In this document: positions 17,609 to 43,347 of the stretch, piece by piece
Numbering within the stretch: position 1 is the stretch's first letter
How the letters are laid out: every line of letters begins with the position of its first letter
DNA from: an uncultured Chlamydiae bacterium
GTDB lineage: Bacteria; Chlamydiota; Chlamydiia; Chlamydiales; Parachlamydiaceae
DNA length: 64,000 nucleotides
Direction: 5' to 3'
Assembly: GCA_963830365.1 (NCBI GenBank)
Contig: CAWHMU010000035.1
Coordinates: forward strand, 30,129 to 94,128
Notes under the pieces: model-generated
Told to the model about the DNA's origin: nothing
Databases searched by the model: none
The model's input: only the letters and a program-made list of their open reading frames with translations
Translations under genes and position numbers: made by a program

Positions 17609-18592
17609 ATGAAGAGAAAATTTCATTTCCTGATAGCAGCGCTTTTGATAGCGAATACCCTCTGTTCGGCCGCATTAGACCCTATGCCTACAGATGCAGC
17701 CTTCCCATGGAATTTTGATTTACCGGATAACACCTATCACAAGTTCTGTAAAAACATATATTCCCAGAATGGCGAAGACGGCATTATCGAGCAGCTGTTA
17801 AAAGAGTTGGAAATCCATGAAGGGACCTTCTGTGAATTCGGTGCCTCAAATGGCATAGCTTCCAGCAACACCTACAACCTGATTAAAAATTTCAATTTTT
17901 CCGGGATAGAGATTGAAATGAACAGATCGCGCTTCCAACAATGCGTCAATAATTATAAAGCGTATCCCAATGTTCAAGTATTTCATGGTCCAGTTTTATA
18001 CGGCCATAAGAAATTCAACCTTAATACCTGGTTGAAAAAGGGGAATTTGCCATCCGATCTCGACCTGCTCAGCATTGATATCGATTGCGATGACTATTAC
18101 GTTTGGGATGATCTAACTGAATATGCGCCAAAAATTGTTGTCATTGAGGCGAATTCCTACCGGGACCCAGTCTACCAAGAACTGCCAAGAAAGCCTTCAC
18201 AGGAATACAACCTAGACCCGCTCAAGCAATGGTTTCCGGAACGCATTGCCCTTGGTTGCAGTTTCATATCAGCCGTTGAACTGGGCCTGAAAAAAGGCTA
18301 TATTCCCGTGTCTTTCACCGGCAATCTTACCTTTGTAAGAAAAGATTTAATCCATAAACTGCATGATTTTCCATATATCATCTCTGACGATCCATATGAC
18401 TATATCACGCTTTATACCCCCTTGGTACTATGGGGCGACAAGTGGTACACCAACACAGGCTTGCTTTTCAATACGGCCATACGCGACTACTACCAGATAT
18501 TTAAAATTAAACATATTGATGCAGATTGGATAAAAGCCAGAATGAATCAAATATTGAATAGCAGCAACGATACCAGTCGGATTGGCTTTTAG
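17609..18592 (+). CDS. FkbM-like SAM methyltransferase-fold protein with signal peptide
   Basis: MKRKFHFLIAALLIANTLCSA signal; YSQNGEDGII, FCEFGASNG, LLSIDIDCDDYYVW. Alternative upstream starts at 17546-17603. Confidence 0.7.
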   Translation: MKRKFHFLIAALLIANTLCSAALDPMPTDAAFPWNFDLPDNTYHKFCKNIYSQNGEDGIIEQLLKELEIHEGTFCEFGASNGIASSNTYNLIKNFNFSGIEIEMNRSRFQQCVNNYKAYPNVQVFHGPVLYGHKKFNLNTWLKKGNLPSDLDLLSIDIDCDDYYVWDDLTEYAPKIVVIEANSYRDPVYQELPRKPSQEYNLDPLKQWFPERIALGCSFISAVELGLKKGYIPVSFTGNLTFVRKDLIHKLHDFPYIISDDPYDYITLYTPLVLWGDKWYTNTGLLFNTAIRDYYQIFKIKHIDADWIKARMNQILNSSNDTSRIGF

Positions 18593-18607
18593 TTTAGAGG
18601 GGACATT

Positions 18608-19459
18608 GTGAGCTATTTGATTTTTTGTTTTTTCATGCCAGCTTTAATCTTCGCAACCCCCACGCAGGATCATCAGGCTTCCTGGAGCAGTGCAGACAGC
18701 CAAGCCTTTTTTGGCCAGCATCTGCCGCTTAGCGATAGCGGGAAAATAAATATCCCCGCCAACATCAAGCATGTAAAATTGGATATCGGACTGTCATGGT
18801 GTGCTCCGATGTCCCAGGTATGGCTGGCAAAAGAGGATGACCTGATCGTTTTCGGTTTTGAGCCACATCCAAAGTCTATAGCTTCGATAAAAAATGGCAG
18901 CTGCGTGCCAGACGCTTGGGCTAGGGATTATCTTGATCCCCTCCATCCCATTCGGCATAAAAGTGAAATCCCGAAACTTTTCGGGACGCACTTTTTCCTT
19001 ATTCCTTGCGCCTTAGGCTTGTCACAAGATAAAACGGCGACGTTTTACCTGACAGGAAACGATTGCGGCTGTTCAAGCCTCTTTGCCCCAGTAACGATAC
19101 CTGTCATCGATATCATTGAGGTGCCGGTTTTGCCCTTGGCAAGTTTTTTTGACATCTTCCCCTTTGACACCCATCCATTTATTGATTATATCAAAATCGA
19201 TGCGCAAGGCGCAGACCTGGATATCGCCAAAAGCGCTGGAGCCTACTTGACAGAGCGAGTCGTTTGCATTACCCTTGAACCGGAAAATAACGCATATGAA
19301 GGCACCAAAAATTCCCTAAATGATGTGGATGCATATATGTCAGCCATGGGCTTTCAAAAATACGATTCTAAGAACACCGGCGATCCCACGTACGTAAATA
19401 TTAAGTTTATGCAGTATTTTTTGGATCACCAGGAACTGCACATCTTCCAGCAGGGTTAA
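18608..19459 (+). CDS. FkbM-family methyltransferase with signal peptide
   Basis: GTG after AGAGGGG; MSYLIFCFFMPALIFA signal; LDIG, VFGFEP, IDYIKIDAQGADLDI. Confidence 0.78.
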   Translation: MSYLIFCFFMPALIFATPTQDHQASWSSADSQAFFGQHLPLSDSGKINIPANIKHVKLDIGLSWCAPMSQVWLAKEDDLIVFGFEPHPKSIASIKNGSCVPDAWARDYLDPLHPIRHKSEIPKLFGTHFFLIPCALGLSQDKTATFYLTGNDCGCSSLFAPVTIPVIDIIEVPVLPLASFFDIFPFDTHPFIDYIKIDAQGADLDIAKSAGAYLTERVVCITLEPENNAYEGTKNSLNDVDAYMSAMGFQKYDSKNTGDPTYVNIKFMQYFLDHQELHIFQQG

Positions 19460-19755: not shown

Positions 19756-20478
19756 TCAAAATTCCAATTTTTGAACCACGTTCGGTATAAATTCAAGTTC
19801 TGCTAATCGCAAACTTTCAGGCGTGCCGATATCCCGGTGGTAGCCCATATTGCGAAAGATCTGCATCCTGGCTAAATAATGCGGCAGAACCTCGGTGCTA
19901 AAGTCAAGGATCTCTTTGTTCTGCAATGCTATAAATTCAATGACGCTAGGTTCGATGATATAGACGGCGGCATTGGCCTCGTCGCCTGGAGGATGAAGAA
20001 CTTTTTCATGGAATCCGATGACGATATTGTCTTTATCGCATTCCACAATGCCGCAACTCTGCGGGGTATCTGTCATGAATGTCATCATCGTAATCTCTAC
20101 GCCTTGCTTGCGCATCTCATGCGCTTTCAAAAACGCCTGGATATCAAACCGCGTCAAGTTGTCTGCATGGGCCAATAGAAACGGCCCTTCTTCCAGCCAC
20201 TTTCTATTTTTCAACACAGTTCCCGCAGTGCCAAGCAGTACTTTTTCATGGACCAACCTTACCTTGTCCTTCCATCGATGCGATTGTACGAAATCCTGTA
20301 CGCGTTCCGGCAAATAGTGGGTATTGATTAAAACATGATCGATGTCTGTCGACAATAACATGTCCAGCCAATAGCCTAAAAGTGGTTTCCCATGGATGGG
20401 AACAAGACATTTCGGTACTTTATTCGTGATTGGTCTCAACCGAGTGCCTAAACCAGCAGCGAGCAAAACAGCTTTCAA
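19756..20478 (-). CDS. Sugar-1-phosphate nucleotidyltransferase (HddC / mannose-1-phosphate guanylyltransferase-like)
   Basis: TTG start overlapping the upstream stop; KAVLLAAGLGTRLRPITNKVPKCLV, LLGTAG, YHRDIGTPE. Confidence 0.88.
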   Translation of the reverse strand: MKAVLLAAGLGTRLRPITNKVPKCLVPIHGKPLLGYWLDMLLSTDIDHVLINTHYLPERVQDFVQSHRWKDKVRLVHEKVLLGTAGTVLKNRKWLEEGPFLLAHADNLTRFDIQAFLKAHEMRKQGVEITMMTFMTDTPQSCGIVECDKDNIVIGFHEKVLHPPGDEANAAVYIIEPSVIEFIALQNKEILDFSTEVLPHYLARMQIFRNMGYHRDIGTPESLRLAELEFIPNVVQKLEF

Positions 20479-21962
20479 TGGACTAATTCCTTTTGGAGTT
20501 CCGTTTGACTTAAAGGCAAATTCCCCATCCGGCCCACCTGACAGGCTGCGGCGATAGAACCTAAATATGCGCTTTCCCAAATTGTGGCGCCGGCAACCAA
20601 AGACATCGAAGCACAGATCAGCAAGCAATCGCCTGCGCCGGCTAAGTCTTTTGGTTCGAGATTAAATGCGGGCAATTCATCGGTGTGGACATTCGTTGTC
20701 CCGTTATTTGGGGAGTAAATAAGCACTCCTTCGGACCCTAGGGTAACTAAGACATGTTTTGCATTTATCTTCCGCTTCAGCATATCGGCAACTGCTATAA
20801 GCCCTGAATGGGGATTGCGAATTGCCAGCCTTGCTTCCCGCTCGGTAGGAGTAATCAGCAACATGTTTTTAAACCGCCCGATATCACCAACTTGCGATGA
20901 GGATTGACTGTCTGCCACCATAGGAATCCCCCGCTTCAAGCAAAATGCGACGATCTTATTGATCAGGTGCTGAGGAAGACAGCCGTAACTAAAATCAGAA
21001 AAAACAAGTAAATGGGCATTTTCGAGCGCTTTGACTATTTCAGCCATCATTTGCTCTTGCTGCTCGTGGTTCATATGATGCTGGCGAAGCTCGGAGACCC
21101 TAAGAAGAGTTTTCCCTTGCGTACGAAAACGCTGCTTCAAGGTCGTCGGTCTGCTCTCATCCACAATCAAACAGGATTTTACGCCATACTCCTTCAATTT
21201 GCCTCTTGCATAATTAGCCGTAGCATCATTGCCGACAACGCTAAAAAAATCCACCTGTGCGCCAAGGCTTTTGGCATGCGCTGCGACAATGCCAGCTCCC
21301 CCTAGAAAAAGATCCCGTTTGATTGGAGTGACAACAATTGTGGGATCTTCCTGCGACATCCCTAATGGATCGCAATAAACATACTCATCGATGATCAAAT
21401 CCCCTAAAACAACCACGCTAAGATCGGGGAAATGGCTGACAATGCCTGATAATTTTTTAATATCCGTAGAATGGCGTTTCAAATAAGCGATCGGCTTATT
21501 GATGGAATGTAAAGGAGGTTTTTGCAATTCTTTCTTCAAATGATTCAAGGAAGAGAACCAAGTCTCGCCAGAAGCAAAAATCAATTGCCCTCCGTAACTT
21601 TCCACTGCCGCCTGTTCGACGTTTGGCTGCAATTCATGCTCTTTTCCCTTAACGACGATGTCAGGTTTTAAACCGGCAATAAATTCTTGCACAGGCACTG
21701 TCATCACATAGGCAAAATCGACCAGGCCTATCGCTTTGACACTCTCGAGACGCAGCTCCTCTGGAACGAATATATCGGGATGACCATCTGGCGTGATCCC
21801 GACGATCAAAGAATCTGCGCTTTCGGCCGCAAAATTGAGCAGGCGAATATGGCCTGGATGGACCACATTAAAATTCCCTGAAATGAAAGCAATCTTTTTG
21901 CCCTTTTTTATCTTGCTTCGAATTTCACTGATCAGAGACGAGGCCTTCTTTTTCACTAGCAT
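20475..21962 (-). CDS. Bifunctional cytidylyltransferase-domain / PfkB-kinase protein (HldE/RfaE-like, domains in reverse order)
   Basis: N-terminal GNFNVVHPGH and PDIVVKGKE; C-terminal LGGAGIVA, ITPTEREA, DLAGAGD. Confidence 0.85.
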   Translation of the reverse strand: MLVKKKASSLISEIRSKIKKGKKIAFISGNFNVVHPGHIRLLNFAAESADSLIVGITPDGHPDIFVPEELRLESVKAIGLVDFAYVMTVPVQEFIAGLKPDIVVKGKEHELQPNVEQAAVESYGGQLIFASGETWFSSLNHLKKELQKPPLHSINKPIAYLKRHSTDIKKLSGIVSHFPDLSVVVLGDLIIDEYVYCDPLGMSQEDPTIVVTPIKRDLFLGGAGIVAAHAKSLGAQVDFFSVVGNDATANYARGKLKEYGVKSCLIVDESRPTTLKQRFRTQGKTLLRVSELRQHHMNHEQQEQMMAEIVKALENAHLLVFSDFSYGCLPQHLINKIVAFCLKRGIPMVADSQSSSQVGDIGRFKNMLLITPTEREARLAIRNPHSGLIAVADMLKRKINAKHVLVTLGSEGVLIYSPNNGTTNVHTDELPAFNLEPKDLAGAGDCLLICASMSLVAGATIWESAYLGSIAAACQVGRMGNLPLSQTELQKELVH

Positions 21963-21974
21963 ACTTTCTCTCCT

Positions 21975-23027
21975 TTATTTCATGGCGATCAGGCATCGCC
22001 CCTTTGTTGTTCCGTCGCGCATCGATTGAATGGCCTGATTGATCTCTTCTAATGGATAAGTTTCGGTGATGAACTCCTTCAACTTGATCCGCCCTGCCTG
22101 CAGCAAAGTATAATAACGGGGGATGTCGATATGCGGAAGCGCCTCCCCGCCATGAGAACCTGTGATCTGCTTGCCAAAGTGCAAAGGCAGCGAGTAAATG
22201 GAAATATCGTGGCCTTTGGGAGGAACGCCGACCAGGACGACACGCCCTTGAGGCTTTGTCGCATGATATCCCAGCTTGATGATCTCTGGATTTCCTGTAT
22301 TGTCGACGAAACAATCGACCCCTTGAGGACCTGCAATCTTTTCGATCGACTGGCCAGCATCCTGGTCCCTCGTGTTGATCAGATGGGTGGCGCCTGCGGT
22401 TTTTGCGAGATGAAGTCGCGCATCAAAACGATCGACGGCGATGATCGGATAAGCAGAAACAAGGCTGGCCGCTTGAATGATGTTAAGGCCGACCCCGCCC
22501 GCACCAAAGACGACGATCGATTCCCCGATTTTTAATTTGGCATTGTTCACGATCACGCCAAAGCCCGTGGTGACAGCGCAGCCGAACAATGCGGCCACTT
22601 CAAGGTCAGCCTCTTTGGGGATCGGCGTCAAGCGGTTTTCCGAGACAATGGCGTACTCATTAAATGTGGTGATGCATCCGGCATTCAAACTTTTTCCGCG
22701 CCATTGATAGACAGGGGGCTTGGCCTCGATCCCAAGCCCTTTGCGCCAATGCATGACGACGGTATCGTAGGGTTTGACATGGGTAACACCGGGTCCGGTC
22801 GCGAGAACCTCTCCAGAAGCTTCGTGCCCAAGCAAATGGGGAAGATACTTATCTTCTCCCTTGACACCATCGATTTCGCCAAGTTGCGACCCGCAAATGC
22901 CGCTGAAATGCACTTTGACAAGCACTTGTCCTACCTGCAAAGACTCGGGCAAACTGATCTCGTCGATGACAAGCGGAGAGCATTGACTGACGAGGATCGC
23001 TGCTTTGATTGTACGTGGTATTTCCAT
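21975..23027 (-). CDS. Zinc-binding medium-chain dehydrogenase
   Basis: SGICGSQ, LLGHEASG, ALFGCAVTTG, VFGAGGVG. Confidence 0.88.
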   Translation of the reverse strand: MEIPRTIKAAILVSQCSPLVIDEISLPESLQVGQVLVKVHFSGICGSQLGEIDGVKGEDKYLPHLLGHEASGEVLATGPGVTHVKPYDTVVMHWRKGLGIEAKPPVYQWRGKSLNAGCITTFNEYAIVSENRLTPIPKEADLEVAALFGCAVTTGFGVIVNNAKLKIGESIVVFGAGGVGLNIIQAASLVSAYPIIAVDRFDARLHLAKTAGATHLINTRDQDAGQSIEKIAGPQGVDCFVDNTGNPEIIKLGYHATKPQGRVVLVGVPPKGHDISIYSLPLHFGKQITGSHGGEALPHIDIPRYYTLLQAGRIKLKEFITETYPLEEINQAIQSMRDGTTKGRCLIAMK

Positions 23028-23032
23028 ATGGC

Positions 23033-23704
23033 CTATTCAAAATAGATTAAGGAGTGATCACCTGAGTAACCCGTTTGCTTGAACCACCAGTCCCACTCTT
23101 CCGGCGTGCAAAAGGCCTCACATGTGACCTGCCAATAGAGGAGATTGGCTTTTTCGCTTTCATTGCGGTAAGACTCAACGCAAATGTACTTGTTTTTCTT
23201 TCCAACCCGCTCAATTTCTCGCAAGGCATTCTCCAGATCGTAGTTGTGTAAAGTATGCAAGGCATTGATAGAGATCACCAGATCGAAGAAGTGGTTGGGG
23301 TAAGGCAAAGCAATAGCATTGCCCACTTGAAGCCTATCCCTGATCTCTTCTTTTGCATTGGCGATCGCGTAATCGGAAACGTCGATCCCCCATAATTCAA
23401 GCCCGGGAACAACTTTAGTGAAGTCGTAAAGCAAGAACCCTTTACCGCACCCTACATCGAGAATTTTATCTCCCGGTTTAAGGCCATAATGATCGGCAAG
23501 AGCCTTCGCGACCGTCTCCCAGCGCCCTTCCATATACCTATAACCGCCATAGCAAATGCGTCGGTCCCCATCCCAATAGTCGAAATCCCACTTCTTTGCC
23601 AATTCTGCGGCCTTCGCCTTGGGATAATCGGGGTCATTGACACGGGCTAGATAGTTGCGCTTGGTGCTATTATGCACAGCGGACATAAAGTCTTTATAGG
23701 CCAT
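23033..23704 (-). CDS. Class I SAM-dependent methyltransferase
   Basis: ILDVGCGKGF, FDLVISIN. Confidence 0.85.
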   Translation of the reverse strand: MAYKDFMSAVHNSTKRNYLARVNDPDYPKAKAAELAKKWDFDYWDGDRRICYGGYRYMEGRWETVAKALADHYGLKPGDKILDVGCGKGFLLYDFTKVVPGLELWGIDVSDYAIANAKEEIRDRLQVGNAIALPYPNHFFDLVISINALHTLHNYDLENALREIERVGKKNKYICVESYRNESEKANLLYWQVTCEAFCTPEEWDWWFKQTGYSGDHSLIYFE

Positions 23705-23776
23705 ATTTTCCCTTTAGATTTTTCATCGCTTGGTGTGGAAGAAAGAGATTAAGTACAATACAGAACCATTGCCAAA

Positions 23777-24763
23777 TTATTGTTTGTGAACGTAGTCAAA
23801 ATTTTGAGAACTCAGGACATTGAAATGCTCTCGAACCCACCGGATAGACTCATCGAGTCCCTGATCGAGCGAAATGAGGTCGCGCCATCCGAGTTCTCTT
23901 CTCAACTTGGTGCTGTCGAGATGATAGGAGCTGTCCTTGCCCAGCCGTTCTCCAACCACTTCGACATGGTCTTCTAACCGCACATCGAGCTTGTGGCAAA
24001 TCCGCTCGACAAGGTCGTAAATGGAAATCACTTCAGGAGAAGCAATGTGATAGGTATCCCCATTGTTGCCGTTTAACATAATTCTCCACGTGGCATCGGA
24101 GACATCTTTCATGTGAATGAAGTTTCGGGTAGAAGCTCCCCCGCCGTGCAATTGGATCTTGCGCCCGAGCAGGATAAATAAAATAGTCCGAGGAATGATC
24201 CGGTAAAGCTGCTGGCCCGGGCCATACACGTTGGCAGAGCGCGTGGTGATGACAGGAAAGCGATAGGCGGCATAAAAAGAGCGCAGGCTCATGTCTGCTG
24301 CAGCGCGAGAAACGGCATACGGTGTGCTGGGATTAAAAGGAAAGTCTTCTTTGACATTTCCGGGACAGCTTCCATATACCTCAGGAGTGGAGACATGGAC
24401 ATAGCGCTTTAAAAAGTCGCTTCTTTTAAGCGCATTATGGAGTGCGATGGTCGATACCGTATTCGTCATGAACCAATCCTGCGGACGTTCCCAGCTTTCT
24501 GCTACCATGCTCTGCGCAGCAAAATTGACGATGTATTCCGGTCTTTCCTGCTCGATCCAATCGAGGATCTCAGTCAAATTTTTGTTTAGATCAAGCTGTA
24601 GAAAATGAAAACCGTCGTTTGCGCGCCATTTGTACGGCAGAAAGGCTTCGACAGGTTCTCTAGAACGGCTCATTCCAGTCACATCGGCCTTTTTTGCAAG
24701 GGCGAAATCAACAAAACTTGCGCCTGAAAATGAATTGCTACCGATAACTAGCAGTTTCAGCAT
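23777..24763 (-). CDS. NDP-sugar 4,6-dehydratase-like extended SDR
   Basis: NFAAQSMV, HVSTPEVYG, PSTPYAVSRAA, NVYGPGQ. Confidence 0.85.
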   Translation of the reverse strand: MLKLLVIGSNSFSGASFVDFALAKKADVTGMSRSREPVEAFLPYKWRANDGFHFLQLDLNKNLTEILDWIEQERPEYIVNFAAQSMVAESWERPQDWFMTNTVSTIALHNALKRSDFLKRYVHVSTPEVYGSCPGNVKEDFPFNPSTPYAVSRAAADMSLRSFYAAYRFPVITTRSANVYGPGQQLYRIIPRTILFILLGRKIQLHGGGASTRNFIHMKDVSDATWRIMLNGNNGDTYHIASPEVISIYDLVERICHKLDVRLEDHVEVVGERLGKDSSYHLDSTKLRRELGWRDLISLDQGLDESIRWVREHFNVLSSQNFDYVHKQ

Positions 24764-25367
24764 GGATGGCCTCTTCTTTCGTTTCTAATTCAGGCCGATT
24801 GCAGTAGAGCCATTGCATCAGCATATGGCCGACGATCATTTGTAAATCTTCGGAAAGCTGCATATCATCGACAGCAAAATGGATCGGGACATCAGCCAAG
24901 GCCTTGCATGCTCCGCCGGAAAAACCAAGGACGGCATACGATTTGATTTCCATTATTTTTGCCTCTCGGAGGACTGCCTGAATGTTTGCAGAATTGCCGC
25001 TTCCGGAAAATACGATCAGTAAATCCCCCGATCTTCCAAGGACTGCCAATTGCTTGGCAAAGATTTGCTCATAGCTAATATCATTGGCAAGGCATGTGAT
25101 GACTGCCGGGTTGGCAGAAAGCGCTTGCACCCGCATCCCAAGATGGGAATGACCGCCGATCCCATACAGATAATCGTTTGCCAGATGGATAGCATTCGCT
25201 GCGCTTCCGCCATTACCGCAAAGGAAAACCTGTCGGTCTCTTTCCCAACATGTATATAAGTCAAAAGCAAGTTTTTCGACTTTTCCCCAGTCGCTGGCAG
25301 CGAGGATAGTCTGCAAACGCCTTGAATAGCGCTGAAAAAAGTGCTGAGGATTCTCTTGATCGTTCAT
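24738..25367 (-). CDS. gmhA: SIS-domain phosphoheptose isomerase (GmhA-like)
   Basis: FLCGNGGSAANAIH, TCLANDISY, FSGSGNSANI, EDLQMIVGH; ATG at 25367 overlaps the upstream stop. Confidence 0.82.
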   Translation of the reverse strand: MNDQENPQHFFQRYSRRLQTILAASDWGKVEKLAFDLYTCWERDRQVFLCGNGGSAANAIHLANDYLYGIGGHSHLGMRVQALSANPAVITCLANDISYEQIFAKQLAVLGRSGDLLIVFSGSGNSANIQAVLREAKIMEIKSYAVLGFSGGACKALADVPIHFAVDDMQLSEDLQMIVGHMLMQWLYCNRPELETKEEAIHAETASYR

Positions 25368-26314
25368 GCCGGTGCTCCCTCCAATACCGCTTGCTTCATC
25401 CATTTCAGATTGTAAAAACGATCTTCGTCTTGACAAACCCCCGCTTGGTATTGGGTAGTGATCTCCTGAATGGCATCTTCTACTTTTTTCTTTGGTTTGA
25501 AGCCCGTCGCAAGCAGCTTGTCTGAATTGACTCGATAGCACCTGGGATCATTAGATGGAGTCACAGCAATTTCAACGGAGACATATTTTGTGACCAATTT
25601 TGCGATGTCGAGAATGGATATGTTTTCAAATCCCGCGTTGTAGATTCCCGTGTGTTCTGGATGATCCAGCAAATGCAAGTAAAGATCCGTGATATCATCT
25701 ATATGAATATTGGGCCGGATCTGATCTCCGCCAAACACCGTGATCTTCCCTTTGGAAAGAGCCTGGATAGTCAGCATGTTCACCGCGACATCGAACCGCA
25801 TCCTTGGAGAATAGCCGCATACTGTCCCTGGGCGAACGATTTGGACAACCATATCGTCTTGATAGCTCAGAACGACGCGCTCGGCAACCATTTTGGTCTT
25901 GTTGTATTCAGAAATTGGCTCGAGCTCAATCGTTTCAATCACATCCTCTTCATCTTTCACCCCATAGACGCTTCCCGAAGAGGCATAGATGAATCGTTTA
26001 ACTCCTAATCGCTTTGCGCGGTCTGCCAACTGCATGGTCGCAAGGGCGCTCACTTCCCAAGTGAGTTTGGGATCCAAATCCCCGCATGGGTCATTGGCGA
26101 TCGATGCCAAATGGATGATGCAATCCACACCATCTAAAGGAATGCTCTTTACATCGCGCACATCTCCCTTGATCACTTCGAGCTTGGGATGCTTGTGCAG
26201 AAAATTTCCAAACCATTGTAAGTCAAAAACGATGACCTCATGACCTTGCCTGAGCAACTTAGGCACTAAGACATGGCCTTTGTATCCGCAACCTCCAGTA
26301 ACAAGTATTTTCAT
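25364..26314 (-). CDS. NAD-dependent sugar epimerase/dehydratase (extended SDR)
   Basis: ILVTGGCGYKG, YASSGSVYG, YNKTK (YxxxK). Confidence 0.88.
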   Translation of the reverse strand: MKILVTGGCGYKGHVLVPKLLRQGHEVIVFDLQWFGNFLHKHPKLEVIKGDVRDVKSIPLDGVDCIIHLASIANDPCGDLDPKLTWEVSALATMQLADRAKRLGVKRFIYASSGSVYGVKDEEDVIETIELEPISEYNKTKMVAERVVLSYQDDMVVQIVRPGTVCGYSPRMRFDVAVNMLTIQALSKGKITVFGGDQIRPNIHIDDITDLYLHLLDHPEHTGIYNAGFENISILDIAKLVTKYVSVEIAVTPSNDPRCYRVNSDKLLATGFKPKKKVEDAIQEITTQYQAGVCQDEDRFYNLKWMKQAVLEGAPA

Positions 26315-26360
26315 TCATCCTCCTTGGGGGTAATTTGCAAAACCCCTTATTTTTTTTGGT

Positions 26361-28404: not shown

Positions 28405-28407
28405 GAT

Positions 28408-29921: not shown

Positions 29922-29942
29922 TCTTAATACCTTCCCTTAAAT

Positions 29943-31754: not shown

Positions 31755-31768
31755 GTAAAAAACCTTCT

Positions 31769-33884: not shown

Positions 33885-34781
33885 TTATGAAGAAACCGAA
33901 TTTTGCCATTTCATTGATTTTATCAAGTAGAGATTACTACCAATAATAATGATGATTCCTAGGACAAAATACGAACTGGGAGTTACATCCCAGATGAGAA
34001 AATCAAATAAGGATGCCCATACGATTGAGGTATAGTCTAAGGGGGCTAGGGTGGAAGCTTGGGCAAACCTAAGAGCTTGTACCGTTGCATATTGTCCCAT
34101 TGCGGTGAGAAAACTTGCTATCGCAAAAAAACCTAGATCAGACCATGAGACCGGATGCCAATTCATGAGAATAAATGGCACTAACACAAGGGCAAGAGCT
34201 GCATTTCCAGTTATTGCAATTGTAAGACTATGTTCTGTCGCCACAAGTTTTCGAATGAGAATTTTATTGAGACTTCCGACCAAAGCCCCAAATAGGATAA
34301 CTAAATATACCCCTTCTAATCCGGTGTTTGATCCTATTGCGATGCCCACACCGATTGAACCGATGCTGAGCGCAATCCATTTATGCTTACCGATTTTTTC
34401 CTTTAATATCCAGACACTTAAAATGAGGGTAAAAAATGGCGTGGCATACAGCAAAGAGCAGCTTGTTGTAAGAGATGTAAAAGATAACGCATACAGCATG
34501 CAGTAATTATAAACGACATAAGTAAATATCCGGAGAAGATTGCAAAAAGGCTGCTCAATTGAAAGAACAGCTTTGATTTCTTTTTGCTTAATCAGTACTG
34601 TAGCTAAAAAAAACAAACGAAGTAATGACCTGATAAAAGTCATTTGCGGCACTGGATAAACTCCAAGCAGCATCTTTTCGAAAATGCCTCCCGTCACATG
34701 CAAGAATTGCCCCATGACTATCACAAAAATGCCCAAAGTGGCGCGATCTTGCCAAGTCCGCGATATAGAAATCTCTGTCAT
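33885..34781 (-). CDS. DMT/EamA-family transporter
   Basis: About 10 hydrophobic helices in two repeats; YATPFF...ILKEKI, ASTLAPLDY. Confidence 0.85.
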   Translation of the reverse strand: MTEISISRTWQDRATLGIFVIVMGQFLHVTGGIFEKMLLGVYPVPQMTFIRSLLRLFFLATVLIKQKEIKAVLSIEQPFCNLLRIFTYVVYNYCMLYALSFTSLTTSCSLLYATPFFTLILSVWILKEKIGKHKWIALSIGSIGVGIAIGSNTGLEGVYLVILFGALVGSLNKILIRKLVATEHSLTIAITGNAALALVLVPFILMNWHPVSWSDLGFFAIASFLTAMGQYATVQALRFAQASTLAPLDYTSIVWASLFDFLIWDVTPSSYFVLGIIIIIGSNLYLIKSMKWQNSVSS

Positions 34782-34799: not shown

Positions 34800-35810
34800 T
34801 TAATTATTATAGATGTCACTATAGAGAACCTTTCTAAGATAATCTCTTTCCCGATCGAAAAAGAACAAAAATGTATTGGAAGGGTGAGTTGACTCTGAAA
34901 AAATTTCTCCACTTCTCACGCAATCGGAGGAAACTCCGGTTAATTGATACTTCCAAGCCAAGGTCATAAAACTCATCTCATCTATACCGATACAGTAAAA
35001 TTTATCGATTTTTTGCATACGATCATCCCACTCTTGAAATACCCTTGAGATCTTTGTATTAGAAAAATTCAAACCCACGACGCACCCAATAATAAAACGG
35101 ACATTTGCTACTTCATTTGGGGGAATCATTAAAGGTTCGGCGAAATGAGCGAAATTCTCATTAATACTCAACCAAGGACCGCAGTCGATATAGAAGCATC
35201 CTGTTTTTTCCAAGATGTCGAAAACAAGGCTTAAATCATTTAGGGGGGTCGCATGTGTATCAAGATGAACGATTTTTTTATATCCCATGCGCAAAGCTTC
35301 TTTAAAAAATTCAACTTTCCATCTCCCATGAAAGGGGCATGATTTAATTCCTTCTGCGATCATATTGGGAAATCCACCAATCCGGATCATCACAGTGCCA
35401 CTGTAGCCCCATTTTTTTAATTCTTCTAGAATGTGAAATGCTTTTCGGGGGTAGGGATCGTTATAGGATCCATAAATCAAAATGCATCGATCTCGAGTCG
35501 CTTCCACGACATTTAAATGGTGCACTTCAAAGATAGGCATTTCTCCATTTGGGCCCAAAAGTTTGAAATCGCGCATAATTTGAAGGCGCAATTTTATTTC
35601 ATACTTTGGAATATTCTTCCAGGAAACTTCAGGTAGATTTTCTAAATAGGGACGTTTTCCGTCTTTCAAATACGATTCAATCAACTTGTAATCATCCAAT
35701 GTTGGGTTATATACGTCAGAAACAGAGGACCAAAGATCTAAAAGCTCTTCGTCAACGTAAGAATAGACGCACGTAGTCACGCAGAGAAAAAAAAACAAGA
35801 AAATTTTCAT
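34800..35810 (-). CDS. Exported hypothetical protein, possibly glycosyltransferase-like; paralog of the adjacent gene
   Basis: Signal MKIFLFFFLCVTTCVYS; shares NPTL.DYKL, GPN.EMPIFE and RIGGFPN with 35854-36849; GYKKIVHLDT resembles a GT-A acidic motif. Confidence 0.65.
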   Translation of the reverse strand: MKIFLFFFLCVTTCVYSYVDEELLDLWSSVSDVYNPTLDDYKLIESYLKDGKRPYLENLPEVSWKNIPKYEIKLRLQIMRDFKLLGPNGEMPIFEVHHLNVVEATRDRCILIYGSYNDPYPRKAFHILEELKKWGYSGTVMIRIGGFPNMIAEGIKSCPFHGRWKVEFFKEALRMGYKKIVHLDTHATPLNDLSLVFDILEKTGCFYIDCGPWLSINENFAHFAEPLMIPPNEVANVRFIIGCVVGLNFSNTKISRVFQEWDDRMQKIDKFYCIGIDEMSFMTLAWKYQLTGVSSDCVRSGEIFSESTHPSNTFLFFFDRERDYLRKVLYSDIYNN

Positions 35811-35853
35811 ATATACCCCTTTACACCCCTTTTGGATCAAATTATTCAGAATA

Positions 35854-36849
35854 TTAATCTCTACGAACATCATGAAAAAAGAGAAGCGACTTATCTAAAA
35901 TTTTTTGGCGATCAGGTTGAGATACACCTTCAACTGTTTGCGTACAATAATTACCACTTGGTAGACAATTATTTCGCCACATGATGGCGCAAATAAAATA
36001 ATTCTCTCTCTCACAACAGGTAAAAAGCTCGAAATCTTTAACTGCTGTATCCCATTCATGGAATAACTGAGCTCCTCGATCACTATCAAAATTAAAACCA
36101 ACTACATAAGGAACTGTCCAAGGAATATTGCTTGTATTACTTGCATAAATTTTAAAAACATCGAAAAATTCAGAAGGTAGGCCTCCCGAGAAAAAAGCCC
36201 CTCCGCAACCTCTTGCACAAGATAAAAAATACCCTGTTTCTTTCATGCATTCAAAAACATAGCCTGCATCGGTAAGAGGATGCATAGAGGTTTCCCAAAC
36301 AACGATTTGGGTAAACCCCATCCGAATGGCTTCATTAAAAAATTCTAATTTCCAAAAAGCCATAAATGGGCTAAATTTGAGTCCGCCATTTGGTAAATTA
36401 GGAAACCCCCCAATCCGTAGCAATACATTTCCACTATACCCATTTTCCTTCAATTCTTTGAGAACGCGATAGGCTTTTTGAGGATATGTTCCATTATAAG
36501 TTGCGTAAATGCATATGCATCGATTTTCAGTTTCAGGGGTAATATTGAATTTATGCCATTCAAAAATGGGCATTTCTTCATTCGGCCCAATGAATTTCCA
36601 ATTTCGCCTTTGTTTTACTCGAAAGTCACTTAAAGGAAAACCTAGATTTCTACTTGTGCCTTCAACTTCCATTTTTAAGGGGATAAATTCACCATGCTTA
36701 AAATAATTTTCAACTAACTTATAATCCTGCAACGTAGGATTACACACATCTGATAATGAGTCCCAAAGAGCTTCAAGCTCTGGATCAGTATAAGAACATA
36801 GCAAGGGGAAAATCAAAATCAAAAAAAAACACATCTTCATCTTCTTCAT
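35854..36849 (-). CDS. Exported hypothetical protein, possibly glycosyltransferase-like; paralog of the adjacent gene
   Basis: Signal MKKMKMCFFLILIFPLLCS; colinear similarity with 34800-35810. Confidence 0.65.
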   Translation of the reverse strand: MKKMKMCFFLILIFPLLCSYTDPELEALWDSLSDVCNPTLQDYKLVENYFKHGEFIPLKMEVEGTSRNLGFPLSDFRVKQRRNWKFIGPNEEMPIFEWHKFNITPETENRCICIYATYNGTYPQKAYRVLKELKENGYSGNVLLRIGGFPNLPNGGLKFSPFMAFWKLEFFNEAIRMGFTQIVVWETSMHPLTDAGYVFECMKETGYFLSCARGCGGAFFSGGLPSEFFDVFKIYASNTSNIPWTVPYVVGFNFDSDRGAQLFHEWDTAVKDFELFTCCERENYFICAIMWRNNCLPSGNYCTQTVEGVSQPDRQKILDKSLLFFHDVRRD

Positions 36850-37286
36850 GTAAGTGTCCTTTCATTTATACTGTGGTGCACTGAGCTTTGTTACAGAAAG
36901 GCTGCAATCTACCACAAAGATGAGAAACCACAAAAGAATTTTTTATGCCCTTCGAGACAGGGGGGATTTGAATTTCGTTTACTTGGAATTCTGACACGTT
37001 ACAGCGTGGGTCAGATTTCCAGGAACCTCAAGATGAGCCTCGATCGCCTCTTTTTCCAATACACGAACCAATTCTTCAATCGTCAGAAGAACAGGCAACT
37101 GATAATACGATGCATTTTAGTCCTAAATTGAGTGTTATTGATATAGGGACTGAGAATACCCCCGATGCGAAAATGAATTGTAGTTTTAGCCAAGGCATTG
37201 ATTTTCTACCACCAAATAATTCCCTGCTGCTAGACTGGTAAATCAAATTTTATTATAACTATGACCCATCCAACCCACGGAAACAT

Positions 37287-38090
37287 ATGTCAAAACTCTC
37301 AAAATTTTTCATTTTCAGCAGCGCTTGTATGTCTATGCTTGTTCCACTTCAAGGAGATATTGACAAAGCCAACTCATCTCCATTGCAATATAATTTAGTA
37401 GCCGGCCTGCCTGATATTTACCTTGATCCATTTTCTGAAAGGATTGGCCATACCTGGGCATCTGGCCATGTATGGGATAAGCCATTAATTCAAAAATTTT
37501 ACGCCCTCTTGGCGGCCCATGCTGATGCTTTTGTCGTGATGGACCTTGGCGCGCAAACCGGCAGCTTTTCGTTGTTGGCAAAATATTTCCCATACTCTGA
37601 TTGGTATGCCTTTGAGCCTATTGTGGAAGCGGCGGATACTTTAAAGGCAAATCTGCGTTTGAATGATATAAAGAACGTCACTGTTTATCAAATGGCCGCC
37701 TCCGACAGTGCAGGCTGGACGACACTAAAAATGCCTATGCAGAATGCTTGGGGGCTGGCTACTGTCGGTTCAAATGTCCTTAGGTTTGACCCTGTGGCAG
37801 AAAGGGACATTGAATGCATAGATCTGGACAGTTTTGTTGCCGCCAACAATATTGATAAAGTGCATTTTATGAAGCTAGATACCGAAGGCTGGGAGTTCCA
37901 CATCCTTTGCGGCGCAAAAAATCTGATCATACGCGATCGTCCTGTTATCCTGATGGAGTACAATGAAACCAATATGCAGCAATGCCATACAAAAAAAGCC
38001 GAGATCGATGCATTTCTGCGCGATATGGGCTACGAATGGGCCTTGATCAGCAGCGAAGATATTCTGTGCCTGCCTGTAGAACAACTTTAG
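37287..38090 (+). CDS. FkbM-family methyltransferase with signal peptide
   Basis: MDLGAQTGSFS, YAFEP, VHFMKLDTEGWE, RPVILME; hydrophobic N-terminus ending PLQG. Confidence 0.85.
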   Translation: MSKLSKFFIFSSACMSMLVPLQGDIDKANSSPLQYNLVAGLPDIYLDPFSERIGHTWASGHVWDKPLIQKFYALLAAHADAFVVMDLGAQTGSFSLLAKYFPYSDWYAFEPIVEAADTLKANLRLNDIKNVTVYQMAASDSAGWTTLKMPMQNAWGLATVGSNVLRFDPVAERDIECIDLDSFVAANNIDKVHFMKLDTEGWEFHILCGAKNLIIRDRPVILMEYNETNMQQCHTKKAEIDAFLRDMGYEWALISSEDILCLPVEQL

Positions 38091-38389: not shown

Positions 38390-39550
38390 TTATTTTGTAA
38401 TGTAGGTAAAAAGGTCATCGTAAAGGGCTTTGATTTCATGGATCACACCTGGCTCATCGACAATGGTCACGTGCTTTCCACTTTCGGCCACTAATTTTGC
38501 TACGGCAAGCTTTTGCGAAGCATAGATAATTTTTACAGGACAGTTGGGCTTATATGAGACATCATCAAATACATAGTCATCTAGATTCTGCTCGATGAGC
38601 TGCTGCGCCATAAAGCGTGCGTGTTGGTCATTGGCAGCGTCCGTCGCTCTAAATGTCACGGGCTCTATGCCGATAAAGTCGGCATAGTCGGCAAGGGCGC
38701 GGTTGTCGCGCACGAAACAGGGGCCGCCAAAGCCATAGCCGGGCATGAGGTATTTGGATCCTACGCGGGTGTCGCCGCCGATAGCTTTGAGGATGTCATA
38801 TTTATTTGCTCCCGGGGTCTCATCGGCGATATCTCCGACGAGGTTGGCGAAGGCCACCTTGGCTGTCACAAAGCAGTTGAGGGCTAGCTTGGCAATTTCT
38901 GCGCTTGCAACAGACATGTGGGCGATCTGAGGAGTGTTCTGATGGATTGAGCGGTGCAGGCTTTCAAGTAAATCGCCGACTTCATCTGAGGCTTGGCCGA
39001 TAAGGACGATATCAGGCGTGACTAGCCCCTTGACGATCTCTCCTTGGGCAATAAATGGGGGATTATAACTCAACGTGATGTTTGTGCAATCGGCAAGCAA
39101 AGGCAGCGCTGTATTCCTGATGAAACCGGGAAATAGCGTGGAATTAATCACCAGATGCTTGTTGGAAACTTTGTGAGAGTTTATTTTCTTCAACAAGTCT
39201 ATGAGCGCATCGAAATTATAGCCTTCGGTGCCGGTGGTGGTGGAAACAACGATGAGACAGACGTCGGCAAAATCCAACGCTTCTTTAAGAGCGGTCGTGG
39301 CATGGAAATTACAACTCTCCCTTAGCATTTCGTTAATACCTGGTTCTGCCACCTCTAATGTCTTAGAGTTTAGGCGGTCGATATATTCGGGGCTGACATC
39401 AACAGCGATCACATGATGCCCTGCGCGCTCAAAGCAAAGAGCATAGCTCAATCCCAAACGCCCGGCACCAATCACCGAGATGTTGCTGGCAGCAAGCGTT
39501 GTGGCCAGACCTAAAAAGCAGCTGCAAAAAATTCGGAAAAACAGCTTCAT
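38390..39550 (-). CDS. UDP-glucose/GDP-mannose dehydrogenase-family protein with signal peptide and short C-terminal domain
   Basis: ISVIGAGRLGL, YNPPFIAQG, SAEIAKLALN, catalytic GFGGPCF; preceded by MKLFFRIFCSCFLGLATTLAA. Confidence 0.88.
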   Translation of the reverse strand: MKLFFRIFCSCFLGLATTLAASNISVIGAGRLGLSYALCFERAGHHVIAVDVSPEYIDRLNSKTLEVAEPGINEMLRESCNFHATTALKEALDFADVCLIVVSTTTGTEGYNFDALIDLLKKINSHKVSNKHLVINSTLFPGFIRNTALPLLADCTNITLSYNPPFIAQGEIVKGLVTPDIVLIGQASDEVGDLLESLHRSIHQNTPQIAHMSVASAEIAKLALNCFVTAKVAFANLVGDIADETPGANKYDILKAIGGDTRVGSKYLMPGYGFGGPCFVRDNRALADYADFIGIEPVTFRATDAANDQHARFMAQQLIEQNLDDYVFDDVSYKPNCPVKIIYASQKLAVAKLVAESGKHVTIVDEPGVIHEIKALYDDLFTYITK

Positions 39551-40356: not shown

Positions 40357-42162
40357 CAGGGCTTTTTCATTAAAAATACTTTACACTCTTCATGCCGCCC
40401 CTGCGGGTACAAGCTGCGCTTGATGCTCTAGGCCGGCAGTCGTCTACTCGAGCTGGTAAACCTCGCTCCCGCTGCTCACTTCCTTGATAAACTTGTTTAA
40501 CAGTTCAAGCACATAGTGATCATTCCACATTGCCTTGCGTTGTTTTGATGCCAAACCGCGTCCTTGCACTGTTTCCTGTTTTAAAATGCAATAGGCCATC
40601 CGTCTAAAGAGACCTAGATTCTCCGCTGCATGGCCAGTATTGGCCCGGGAGATATCATCACCGAATAACACATCTAAAACCCAATGAAGATTATTCTCAA
40701 TCCCCCAGTGTGAGCGAACAGTGCTGTTCGCCATCTTCGCAGTCATATCCTTGCTGGAAATGTAGTAGCGAAGTTCTTCTGTAGATTTACCCTTGATCGT
40801 CCTAGTGGATTTCACTTCTATCAGCATCTTAAGATCCCGCCAATCACTTCGACAATCCAGCCAATTGAGATTTTTGGTGATTGTCACCTCTCGCTTCTCT
40901 AGCCTGCCGTGTCCTTCATTGGTCGCTTCATACTTTTTACACTTAGCCCCCTTATAATCAGCTGCTCTGGCTTGATCAAAAAAATTCTGGGCCTCAGCAT
41001 GTAGAGTGTCTTGGTTTCCTTTTAAGGCAATCACATAATGCCCTCCGCGCTCCCTGATGTCATTTACAATGCCTTTTTGGCACCCCATCGCATCAATTGT
41101 GACCGTCGCATCCTTGACATCGATTACCTTTAGCAACTCTGGAATTGCCGTGATCTCATTGGATTTTTCCTCTGTTTTCACTTGACCAAGCAGAAGCCCA
41201 CTTCCAGACTCGTATCCGCTCACGTAATGAACAAGATCCTTTTTGGCACCTCTCAGAGTTTTCCCGTCGATAGAGATTTTTTTCTCAGTGCCGCCCAAGG
41301 TGTCAGCCACCAACTTAATCCATTTAATGAATGCCTGGTTCAAGATTTCAGGGTTTGTTCGCGTCAGGATCCACCAAAAGGCGGTATAGGAAGGGTGTCG
41401 TTCGAGATTAAGTAAAGGGCATAACATGGCAGCTTTTTCCTTTCCATACTCGTAAATACCACTGATGGACTTTGCGCCTGCAAGAATACCCGCCAGAATC
41501 GTTAGCAGAAGTCCATAGAATGGATATTGCAGATTATCTGCGACGCGCGGATCCTGAACGTCCGCAAAAGCATGTTTTACAGCATCCTCGTAAGAGTGAA
41601 TATCGACATTTTGATCGTGTTCGTCGTAGATGAATTTCTTTCTTACTGACATGTTTTCGCCCTCAAAATCCCCCGTAGCAATTTGAAGATCTCCAGTATC
41701 GGGATCCTGAGAATTCGCTGTCAACTTATTAGCTTCGACAAGTGAAGGACTGGAGTCACCTGAAGGATTAGGGGCTGTCTGAGAAATTGCCTTGCGCCGT
41801 TTTTTTGCGTCTTTCAGCGTCTGACGCCAGAATACGACTTCCTCATTAGTGAGTTTACCCAATTTAAGTACGATTTCTTTCCGGCATGAGCCGTTTGTCC
41901 AAATGGATCTAGCAAGGCTATAGGAGACATACTTCTTGCCCTTAGAGGTAAATGCACCCCAGTTTAGATGTAGATCTACCAGATTCATCGACATATTAGA
42001 CCATATATTTATTTAAAACACCTTGTAATATACGTGATAAATAAAGTCAATTGTTTTTTTATGTATTAGGCTAGATATATGAGAATAAAAATGGCGAAAT
42101 CGCCTTAGAGCTGGCTGTGAGTGGAATTTTTGGTGTTAAATTTCTTTAATGAAAAAGCCCTG
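40357..42162 (-). mobile_element. ISAs1-family insertion sequence, 1806 bp
   Basis: 18-bp terminal inverted repeats CAGGGCTTTTTCATTAAA; 10-bp target duplication GGGATATACA at 40347-40356 and 42163-42172. Confidence 0.95.
40444..41994 (-). CDS. ISAs1-family transposase with ~125-aa N-terminal extension
   Basis: DPR, ISIDGKTLRG, EKSNEITAIPELL, TIDAMGCQ, LKGNQ, HGRLEKR, RSHWGIENNLHWVLDV. Confidence 0.95.
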   Translation of the reverse strand: MSMNLVDLHLNWGAFTSKGKKYVSYSLARSIWTNGSCRKEIVLKLGKLTNEEVVFWRQTLKDAKKRRKAISQTAPNPSGDSSPSLVEANKLTANSQDPDTGDLQIATGDFEGENMSVRKKFIYDEHDQNVDIHSYEDAVKHAFADVQDPRVADNLQYPFYGLLLTILAGILAGAKSISGIYEYGKEKAAMLCPLLNLERHPSYTAFWWILTRTNPEILNQAFIKWIKLVADTLGGTEKKISIDGKTLRGAKKDLVHYVSGYESGSGLLLGQVKTEEKSNEITAIPELLKVIDVKDATVTIDAMGCQKGIVNDIRERGGHYVIALKGNQDTLHAEAQNFFDQARAADYKGAKCKKYEATNEGHGRLEKREVTITKNLNWLDCRSDWRDLKMLIEVKSTRTIKGKSTEELRYYISSKDMTAKMANSTVRSHWGIENNLHWVLDVLFGDDISRANTGHAAENLGLFRRMAYCILKQETVQGRGLASKQRKAMWNDHYVLELLNKFIKEVSSGSEVYQLE

Positions 42163-42486
42163 GGGATATACATAGCTGAACAGCCTCTTTTCCATATCTA
42201 TTCACAGGGCGACGTCACCGCTTTTGAAAATATTTACAAGGCTGAAGATGTGGTCTTGCATATCAATGAATCTGTCGAACAAACCTTTGCTTCCATGGTC
42301 TTGGCTGATGTGTTGGTGACGACAAGCAGTTCGTTGAGCTACGCCGCAGGTATTATCTCTGAAGGGACGGTATACTACATCCCCTTTTGGCACCCCCCTT
42401 TTCCAGGCTGGATTGTACTGAATCAATAAGGCAGTCGTAAGAGGATTTTAATGACTTCTCAAAATGCAATTTTCAGGAGGTAATAG

Positions 42487-43347
42487 GTGTTATTTCAAAT
42501 CGCGTTTTGTACCATGATGCTACTTACAGCCCATGCCAGTGCAGAAATCTCTAAACATGACGCTGCGGTTTCAGACCCTACCATAGCAGTAGTAAGAAAT
42601 TATTGGGACAAGCAGCCTTGCAACATCAAACACAGCAAATCGGAATTTGGCACCAAGGAATATTTCGATGAAGTTGAACAGCGGAAATATTTTGTAGAGC
42701 CCCATATCCCTGCCTTTGCCGAATTCCAAAAATGGAAGGGCAAGGAAGTGCTAGAAATCGGTTGCGGCATAGGCACTGATTCCATCAATTTTGCGCGCGC
42801 CGGAGCTAAGCTGACGGTGATAGAGCTTTCGGAAAAAAGCCTTGAAATCACAAAAAAGCGCTTCGCTGTCTATGGGCTGGAAGCCACTTTCATTGCGACC
42901 GACGCCGAACATCTGTCCGATGCTCTGCCGGATAAAAAATTTGATCTCGTCTACTCCTTCGGGGTCATCCACCACACTCCCCATCCCGAATTGGTCATTC
43001 AAGAAATTGAAAAGGTCATCAAACCGGGCGGTGAATTGAGGATCATGCTCTACTCCAAGTATTCAACAAAAAATGTGATGATTAATTTGGGGTTGGCCCA
43101 GCCCGAAGCCCAAAGTGGGTGTCCTATCGCTTTCACATACACCCAAGCGGATATTTTGAAACTATTGGCTAATTTCGAAGTTTATGCATGTCGTAAGGAC
43201 CATATCTTTCCCTATAGCATCAAAGAATATAAGGAATACAGCTATGTGAAAAAATTCCCATGGAATGCGATGCCGGAACCTCTTACCCACCTATTTGAAG
43301 AATGGCTGGGCTGGCATTACCTGGTTAAAGCCACATACAAAGGCTAG
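42487..43347 (+). CDS. Class I SAM-dependent methyltransferase with signal peptide
   Basis: GTG after [53 protein letters not shown]. Confidence 0.88.

Follow-up and report, generated by a model that had tools for sequence, protein, structure and literature searches.

Leader-bearing glycan enzymes and a candidate nucleotide-sugar exporter suggest compartmentalised glycosylation in an environmental chlamydia

The window analysed here is a stretch of 64,000 nucleotides (G000:C35:30129-94128) from an uncultured member of the Parachlamydiaceae, whose genome, G000, amounts to 2.73 Mb and is 82% complete. Homologues bear the names of Chlamydiota, Parachlamydiaceae and Babeliales, the genome encodes three full-length TLC nucleotide translocases as well as the Pom and CT021 families, and we infer that the organism is an environmental chlamydia living as an intracellular energy parasite. 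Between positions 17609 and 43347 the window carries an island of glycan-related genes, which a preliminary description had read as one compartmentalised pathway, with eight exported enzymes flanking a sugar-synthesis operon devoid of export signals. All eight signal-peptide-like N-termini (leaders) are indeed in the sequence; the island, however, consists of two separate systems, a six-gene leader-bearing cassette and a mobile module made of two glycosyltransferases (GT) of the GT-A fold, an EamA transporter and the sugar operon. The features are given below; in the text genes are called by their start coordinate, and G, C, L and f numbers stand for genomes, contigs, loci and genome families.

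17609..18592, plus strand: methyltransferase-like gene, weakly FkbM-related, with leader; leader in 6/6 orthologues and 0/4 viral ones
18608..19459, plus strand: FkbM methyltransferase with leader; PF05050 at 39.4 bits (cut-off 22.7); leader in 10/10 orthologues and 0/3 viral ones
19756..27584, minus strand: operon block A, eight leader-less genes, GC content 0.475
27622..33812, minus strand: operon block B, GC content 0.411; PhyH dioxygenase, short-chain dehydrogenase/reductase (SDR), methyltransferase, thiamine pyrophosphate (TPP) enzyme, E1-beta-like and E1-alpha-like proteins
33885..34781, minus strand: EamA transporter of the drug/metabolite transporter (DMT) type, from a distinct clade; PF00892 twice; predicted nucleotide-sugar exporter
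34800..35810, minus strand: glycosyltransferase of the GT-A fold with leader, from a chlamydial family that has no name; AlphaFold2 model with pLDDT 85.9
35854..36849, minus strand: GT-A-fold paralogue, with leader; 37% identical to 34800-35810
37287..38090, plus strand: FkbM methyltransferase with leader; PF05050 at 68.1 bits (cut-off 22.7), TIGR01444 passed; leader in 7/8 orthologues
38390..39550, minus strand: UDP-glucose/GDP-mannose dehydrogenase-family enzyme with leader; PF03721, PF00984
39765..40356, plus strand: N-terminal part of a fucosyltransferase-clan (GT-B) gene, with leader; aligns to the N-terminal part of intact homologues
40357..42162, minus strand: ISAs1-family insertion sequence; NF033564 at 328.8 bits, transposase at 40444-41994
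42163..42429, plus strand: C-terminal part of the fucosyltransferase-clan gene; aligns to the C-terminal part of intact homologues
42487..43347, plus strand: class I methyltransferase with leader; PF13649, PF08241; leader in 13/13 orthologues, 0/17 viral ones and 0/2 from leader-less chlamydial loci

The cassette comprises 17609, 18608, 37287, 39550, 39765 and 42487; all six occur together in L021 and L046 and subsets of them elsewhere, and in chlamydial and Babeliales loci no orthologue of the core operon lies within 8 kb of it. The earlier assignment of 39550 to the UDP-glucose dehydrogenase (UGD) family is borne out by its two domains and by intact active-site residues, G28-G30-G33, K221, N225 and D282 being invariant and C278 nearly so, which include the GxGxxG motif and the catalytic Lys and Cys. 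Likewise, both domain matches of 42487 agree with its description as a class I methyltransferase. Among the three proteins called FkbM methyltransferases, 18608 and 37287 pass the family cut-off (a plasmid search with the latter returned distant FkbM matches only), and 17609 can be called FkbM-related at most: it has no Pfam or NCBIfam match and misses the PF05050/TIGR01444 cut-off, its paralogue passes PF05050 with 25.8 bits, and its alignment gives weak class I methyltransferase matches. The GT11-like transferase at 39765 is split by the ISAs1 element, which has 18-bp inverted ends and a 10-bp target duplication, so that seven leader-bearing enzymes remain whole. The predicted fold of an intact homologue matches FUT8, NodZ and FUT1, and this homologue carries the H-x-R-R motif of the fucosyltransferase clan (GT11/23/37); the clan thus stands and the family does not, since PF01531 (GT11) was passed by 0/12 homologues, two viral ones reaching 20.6 and 20.9 bits against a cut-off of 23.9. 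Sequence searches of the PDB with the alignments of 39765 and 17609 gave nothing significant. The end sequence of the ISAs1 element has 18 matches on nine contigs of G000, suggesting a recent spread.

The leaders were called with our own heuristic of hydrophobicity and charge, which is not a validated signal predictor. All eight contain an uncharged hydrophobic 8-mer within the first 21 residues (mean Kyte-Doolittle value 1.96 to 3.44), followed by a net charge of -5 to +1, and three of the eight lack K/R before the hydrophobic stretch. The preliminary description would have been overturned by true starts lying downstream of the leaders. A Shine-Dalgarno-like word precedes the start of six of the eight genes and favours the upstream starts, and for the dehydrogenase a downstream start was rejected: the first alternative in-frame start is a GTG at residue 26, inside Rossmann strand 1, and therefore no downstream start yields a whole domain. 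In 91 dehydrogenase homologues the extension measures 14 to 32 residues (median 21), with K/R ahead of the hydrophobic stretch in 86 and A, S or G immediately before strand 1 in 65; the residue at -3 is most often Leu (37/91), which is atypical if cleavage takes place exactly at the domain boundary. The sequence of this leader is not conserved, its character is. The core enzymes, 14 and not 13 as counted before, lack leaders as described: the hydrophobic starts of the nucleotidyltransferase, the oxidase and the SDR are the first strand of the domain with no extension, and with a comparable rule 1/66 of the core orthologues in other genomes was leader-like. Finally, 31 enzyme leaders were compared with those of 22 G000 proteins of outer-membrane, periplasmic or secreted type, both sets being hand-picked among leader-positive genes; the best 8-mer had a median of 2.98 in the enzymes and of 2.78 in the reference set, the net charge that follows the hydrophobic stretch had medians of 0 and -1, respectively, and a charge of at least +2 at this place was found in 1/31 enzyme leaders. 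By this heuristic, the leaders appear to possess the basic n-region, the short hydrophobic h-region, the small residues at -1/-3 and the lack of a positive-inside charge behind the hydrophobic stretch that characterise substrates of Sec and signal peptidase I.

The distribution of the leaders was then followed among relatives, leaving out hits below 33% identity or 120 residues, those starting well inside the domain and those cut by a contig end. Orthologues of the cassette enzymes other than UGD bear a leader in 48/49 cases in loci with a leader-bearing dehydrogenase, a chlamydial/Dependentiae-type grouping that is drawn from the tree and in which many loci are labelled as other phyla or unlabelled. 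The corresponding counts are 0/28 for viruses, 0/2 for other bacteria and 0/2 for leader-less chlamydial loci, and leaders are absent in Bacteroidota orthologues; the preliminary description had proposed such a check in giant viruses and free-living bacteria. A leader ending right before Rossmann strand 1 is present in 94/120 dehydrogenase homologues. In leader-positive loci the dehydrogenase has one in 24/25 cases, the exception being fused behind a leader-bearing epimerase; the viral count is 1/66, probably a false upstream start, and that of other bacteria 2/49, both artefacts crossing a stop codon. At L030:6948-9110 the dehydrogenase follows a leader-bearing epimerase in one fused protein, with a GPT-repeat collagen-like gene nearby. 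A quick dehydrogenase tree was built without bootstrap, 12/160 loci without a parsable motif being left out and the remainder subsampled. In this tree the leader-positive sequences form one chlamydial and Dependentiae-type clade (Shimodaira-Hasegawa-like test, SH-aLRT, 94), to which sequences of the giant-virus type are the nearest outgroups. A single leader-less clade (SH-aLRT 94) is nested inside it, and the three loci inspected there hold sugar genes without leaders. Although the tree is no rooted test, its topology suggests that the leader was gained once and lost once. The leader state is locus-wide and all-or-none: nearly every glycan gene bears a leader in L021, L022, L028, L044, L045 and L046, and the sugar genes of L029, L031 and L033 bear none. 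Across the phylum, 13 of the 24 FkbM top loci that were parsed (out of 29) were leader-like, two or three of them doubtfully. The Saccharibacteria-labelled contig L048 has giant-virus-like genes and a dehydrogenase branching beside viral ones, and is possibly mis-binned.

A nucleotidyltransferase hit was obtained in 0/25 leader-positive loci against 2/3 leader-less chlamydial loci, whereas epimerases and Gmd with leaders are present in the leader-positive ones. It thus seems that the cassette modifies nucleoside diphosphate (NDP) sugars made elsewhere, and its substrates could be UDP-glucose and GDP-mannose of the host. Collagen-like genes were present in 5/58 leader-rich loci against 0/67 other bacterial and 1/80 viral loci; Thr-rich collagen-like proteins are a weak lead as glycan acceptors. 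At L021:1572-4802 a leader-positive glycan cassette also encloses genes for a TLC nucleotide translocase and an ERG4/ERG24 sterol reductase.

Leaders are not a peculiarity of the island, since about 30 more cofactor-dependent enzymes elsewhere in G000 also bear them. The genome-wide lists contain 440 (loose) and 257 (strict) of the 1988 called genes, false positives included, and 175 genes in 40 chosen regions were scanned with Pfam. All eight PF05050 matches of the genome bear leaders, and so do, among the genes scanned, members of Methyltransf_24, O-methyltransferase, DUF268, GT2, GT4, GT10, GT11, GT25 and GT92 as well as RXYLT1-like and pyruvyltransferase proteins. The leader-bearing epimerase of G000 matches GDP-mannose 3,5-epimerase (GME); a PhyH dioxygenase, an acetyltransferase-like protein and both adenylate kinases (C4:39986-40723 and C39:79348-80109) belong to the set as well. 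Leader-less GT2, GT4 and aminotransferase genes coexist with them (L216), as do a leader-less housekeeping UGD and thioredoxin reductase. Leaders were also seen on a thioredoxin reductase (G000:C13:9162-10157), an NADPH-dependent FMN reductase (G000:C36:93976-94581), a chloramphenicol-phosphotransferase-like kinase (G000:C35:1373-2131) and a NADAR protein (G000:C36:157398-158156). Glycosyl-, methyl- and pyruvyltransferases with leaders are also grouped in three further clusters of G000, at C35:14800-28700, C18:31200-39100 and C46:105200-114100, the C18 cluster with two proteins that have a sulfotransferase-like start and no Pfam hit, the C46 cluster with a BclA-C-domain protein and an autotransporter.

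In the leader-less operon, block A encodes a nucleotidyltransferase (start 20478), an HldE-like kinase/adenylyltransferase, a zinc dehydrogenase, a methyltransferase, a dehydratase, a GmhA-like SIS isomerase (24738-25367), an epimerase and an L-2-hydroxyglutarate-oxidase-like protein. The class of the product is presumably given by the GmhA-, HldE- and HddC-like families and by the TPP and E1-like branching enzymes, and block B would contribute to the synthesis of a branched or higher-carbon NDP-sugar. Block A shares 89.7% nucleotide identity over 7.8 kb with G413, which belongs to another family, and block B about 90% with G412 and G443. The operon of the window is thus a mosaic of G413-type and G412-type blocks, and since each is about 90% identical in DNA across families, the module is mobile. 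The operon recurs in other chlamydiae without cassette genes. One pathway for the whole island was consequently rejected, cassette and operon being found apart and the operon being itself a two-block mosaic. The compartmentalisation idea itself is supported, and more strongly than before, by the EamA transporter, which had been omitted from the earlier core list and which connects the leader-less operon in the cytoplasm with the two GT-A paralogues. The window operon contains neither a leader-less GT nor a flippase.

The EamA gene, at the head of the operon, shares its strand with the GT-A gene, and 18 bases separate the two. Its close homologues form a clade of their own (SH-aLRT 100) with distinct residues, e.g. 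H28, E35, Y88 and N92; its Atlas neighbours are bacterial EamA clusters, and PF03151 is annotated on 8/34 close homologues. The two GT-like paralogues had been correctly recognised as such, and their predicted fold is of the GT-A type. For the model of 35810 the best Foldseek matches, all GT-A enzymes, are LARGE1, GT6/ABO, UGGT and the PBCV-1 capsid GT (E-values 2e-5 to 3e-4, TM scores of about 0.35-0.44 of the query). D184 is kept in at least 90% of the alignment rows of the family, which is present in 68/300 Chlamydiota genomes and in 0/29 of the small-genome family f20.

Linkage between the two genes was assessed indirectly, by pairing GT and EamA homologues on contigs of equal size. Under this test 11/20 GT homologues (at least 42% identity, contig of at least 2.2 kb) have a partner among 34 close EamA proteins, none of all 33 GT homologues has one among 85 distant EamA proteins, and the identities of GT and close EamA co-vary (rho 0.96, 10 pairs). 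Adjacency is direct in L274, L276 and L290, and L276 runs on into leader-less sugar genes. The close EamA occurs in 0/72 other f1 genomes, 1/103 f5 genomes (G179, cut by the contig end) and 4/129 f8 genomes; in each of these four f8 genomes it is part of a sugar operon without leaders, and a GT-A family member that bears a leader lies no more than about 10 kb away. In G412 the block made of two GT, EamA, E1-alpha, E1-beta, TPP, methyltransferase, SDR and PhyH genes stands alone among unrelated genes. Leader-less TIGR04372 transferases accompany the operon in 4/5 genomes without the close EamA, the fifth (G106) having GT9 and GT90 genes instead, and in 0/5 genomes with it, a sample of five against five related genomes in which G412 is 56% and G000 82% complete. 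A sugar linkage of EamA homologues in general is unsupported, only the clade at or above about 50% identity being linked. A promoter scan of 33600-37400 remained below the shuffle mean and was uninformative.

Taken together, these data suggest that the compartment idea is probably right, the island being composed of a host-fed exported cassette and a separate mobile transporter-transferase-operon module. Some kind of extracytoplasmic activity of the leader-bearing enzymes is very likely. We further propose, with a probability of about one half (0.5), that the exported enzymes build and methylate an extracytoplasmic glycan, that EamA exports the unusual nucleotide sugar of the operon and that common cofactors and sugars come from the host. 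In this scheme (i) the leader-bearing glycosyltransferases, methyltransferases and dehydrogenase would be exported by Sec and their leaders cleaved; (ii) the periplasm, or a vacuole space exchanging with it, would hold ATP, NAD+, S-adenosylmethionine (SAM) and NDP-sugars of the host, which is conceivable because in an energy parasite they have to cross this space on their way to the inner-membrane carriers; (iii) the cassette would modify host-derived UDP-glucose and GDP-mannose in place, by oxidation, epimerisation, transfer and methylation; (iv) the leader-less operon would make in the cytoplasm a sugar that the host cannot supply; (v) EamA would export it to the GT-A pair, by analogy with the nucleotide-sugar transporters of the DMT superfamily in the Golgi; and (vi) the acceptor, the weakest step, could be a bacterial surface protein or glycolipid. 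Passages of published work state the import of NAD+ and SAM by chlamydiae (PMC3104491), rickettsial import that includes UDP-glucose (PMC5615194) and the arrival of host UDP-glucose in the inclusion lumen (PMC4829429).

Several observations weigh against this reading. The canonical DxD motif is absent from the GT-A pair (HLDT in 35810, WET in 36849), most of the 68 genomes with this family lack the close EamA, and 23/24 related EamA loci have no match to a window gene within 1.5 kb, the remaining one being cut by a contig end; the small and related sample behind the either/or pattern belongs here too. A leader-bearing GT32-like gene stands in G158 beside a TIGR04372-type operon without the close EamA, and in G182 an operon of this type adjoins a leader-bearing dehydrogenase. 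Genes for the E and F components of a type II secretion system (T2SS) were not found in G000, at its 82% completeness. A further difficulty comes from adenylate kinase, which is normally essential in the cytoplasm. The best adenylate kinase, whose gene occupies a shared locus in 14/30 cases, bears a leader in 20/30 loci (L399-L428), and the only one found bears it in 14/22 genomes, an observation that cuts both ways; two of the 20 leaders are basic after the hydrophobic stretch, as in cytoplasm-facing anchors. Either this enzyme works in the periplasm next to the ATP/ADP translocase, or export by leaders of this kind may be incomplete, and the second case would weaken the whole argument. EamA itself has no PDB sequence match at E<=1, solved nucleotide-sugar transporters included, and the EamA proteins characterised in chlamydiae and rickettsiae are reversible carriers of SAM, according to passages of PMC3104491.

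These last two points lead to the alternative that survives best, though it is unlikely: the enzymes would be exported, and EamA would be a carrier of SAM and S-adenosylhomocysteine (SAH), or of a precursor, serving the methyltransferases and simply travelling with the module, the operon product leaving otherwise or being used in the cytoplasm. The stand-alone EamA clade indeed shares many conserved polar residues with the linked clade. However, G000 encodes MetK and has two EamA genes besides this one, the methyltransferases are the same in operons of the TIGR04372 type, which lack the close EamA clade, this clade co-diverges with the exported GT, and the window operon has neither a leader-less GT nor a flippase.

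Less probable still, the enzymes could leave by Sec followed by type II secretion or vesicles, reach the inclusion lumen or the host cytosol and act there as effectors on host glycans or metabolites. The leaders on kinases, thioredoxin reductase, FMN reductase and the acetyltransferase-like protein would suit such a role, cofactors being plentiful in the host cytosol, and delivery by Sec and type II secretion is, in the passages available, documented for C. trachomatis (PMC6717882) and proposed for Babela (PMC4378268); T2SS-F was found in 5/5 f8 genomes tested. On the other hand, that T2SS E and F were not found in G000, at 82% completeness, counts against this hypothesis as well, the gene set resembles a surface-glycan island that viruses also carry, and an inner-membrane exporter of a sugar made by the bacterium would fit a compartment next to that membrane.

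As for uncleaved anchors or inefficient signals with catalysis at the cytoplasmic face of the inner membrane and ordinary glycan synthesis, which the preliminary description had itself raised, the leader on the only adenylate kinase found in 14/22 relatives, the two anchor-like ones among 20 kinase leaders and the use of free NAD+ by UDP-glucose dehydrogenase speak for them, but they are improbable given basic residues ahead of the hydrophobic stretch and neutral or acidic ones behind it (cytoplasm-facing anchors show the reverse), small residues ending the leader at the domain boundary, leader-less housekeeping paralogues of the dehydrogenase and of thioredoxin reductase in the same genome, and a GT-tied transporter that would lose its role in product export.

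Around the island, tandem 267-bp units, 94-96% alike with the last one truncated, occupy positions 16312-17326 just upstream; each holds a 31-bp inverted repeat, and a miniature mobile element is possible. Downstream come a 442-residue protein without a family match (43357-44685) and a stand-alone autotransporter beta-domain (45077-46291). An Rfam scan returned two tRNAs only, both outside the island.

The closest likeness to the proposed exporter-plus-cassette system is found in the eukaryotic Golgi and endoplasmic reticulum with their SLC35 carriers, where NDP-sugars are likewise made in the cytoplasm, carried by a DMT-superfamily protein and used in the lumen by enzymes of the GT-A type and the fucosyltransferase clan; Golgi and endoplasmic reticulum enzymes are what the predicted folds of the island transferases match. 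The differences lie in the leaders, of the cleavable type where Golgi enzymes have type II anchors, in the carrier, an EamA-type protein with a duplicated domain and no sequence match to solved SLC35 proteins, and in the export of enzymes modifying NDP-sugars (UGD, GME, Gmd) by the chlamydial system.

Glycogen synthesis in the inclusion lumen of C. trachomatis, as presented in passages of PMC4829429, also places chlamydial nucleotide-sugar enzymes outside the cytoplasm on host UDP-glucose; there, however, the enzymes have no signal peptide and depend on type III secretion, the transporter is SLC35D2 of the host and the product is a storage glucan, whereas in the island the leaders are of the Sec type, the transporter is bacterial, and methylation and complex sugars are involved. 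The families of the island are missing from f20, which is likely Chlamydiaceae (0/29 and 0/26). CTL843, the chlamydial SAM/SAH carrier, and the rickettsial EamA proteins (passages of PMC3104491) share the duplicated EamA domain and inner-membrane cofactor traffic in an energy parasite, but the window EamA matches 0/29 f20 genomes at E<=1e-35 in a genome-level search, not one made with CTL843 itself, and the linked clade is patchy and mobile. TIGR04372 operons for higher-carbon or branched NDP-sugars share their biosynthetic genes with the island, with identities of up to 83% in G158, together with leader-less transferases and ABC or flippase-like genes where the island has EamA and leader-bearing GT-A enzymes. 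Orthologues of the cassette also cluster in glycosylation cassettes of giant viruses and phages (viral contigs L101, L110 and L114), without the leaders that the chlamydial copies bear.

Concerning Dependentiae, 44% of Chromulinavorax genes have signal peptides and 'glycosyl' is not mentioned in the text passages compared (PMC6561590), and Babela has signal-bearing ankyrins and type II secretion only (text passages of PMC4378268); the gene tables of both papers may list leader-bearing glycan enzymes. The literature searched, with subscription journals mostly outside it, gave no description of islands of glycosyltransferases and methyltransferases with Sec signals in chlamydiae or Dependentiae, nor of a bacterial nucleotide-sugar exporter.

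Extracytoplasmic glycosylation in bacteria is usually taken to depend on lipid-linked donors, since the periplasm is without nucleotide sugars, SAM, NAD+ and ATP. Export of the leader-bearing enzymes would make two phyla of protist parasites an exception to this rule. As a tentative generalisation, protist-dwelling chlamydiae and Dependentiae might use the periplasm as a host-fed, cofactor-containing reaction space, with glycosylation of the Golgi type, exported kinases and reductases, an adenylate kinase reminiscent of the mitochondrial intermembrane space and a mobile module exporting exotic sugars. Should the enzymes indeed be exported, the EamA clade would be a concrete and assayable candidate for a bacterial nucleotide-sugar exporter, in a Golgi-like arrangement evolved independently; the reading of host-metabolite use by energy parasites would change, and the surface glycans of protist parasites would be tied to the glycosylation cassettes of the giant viruses that share their hosts.

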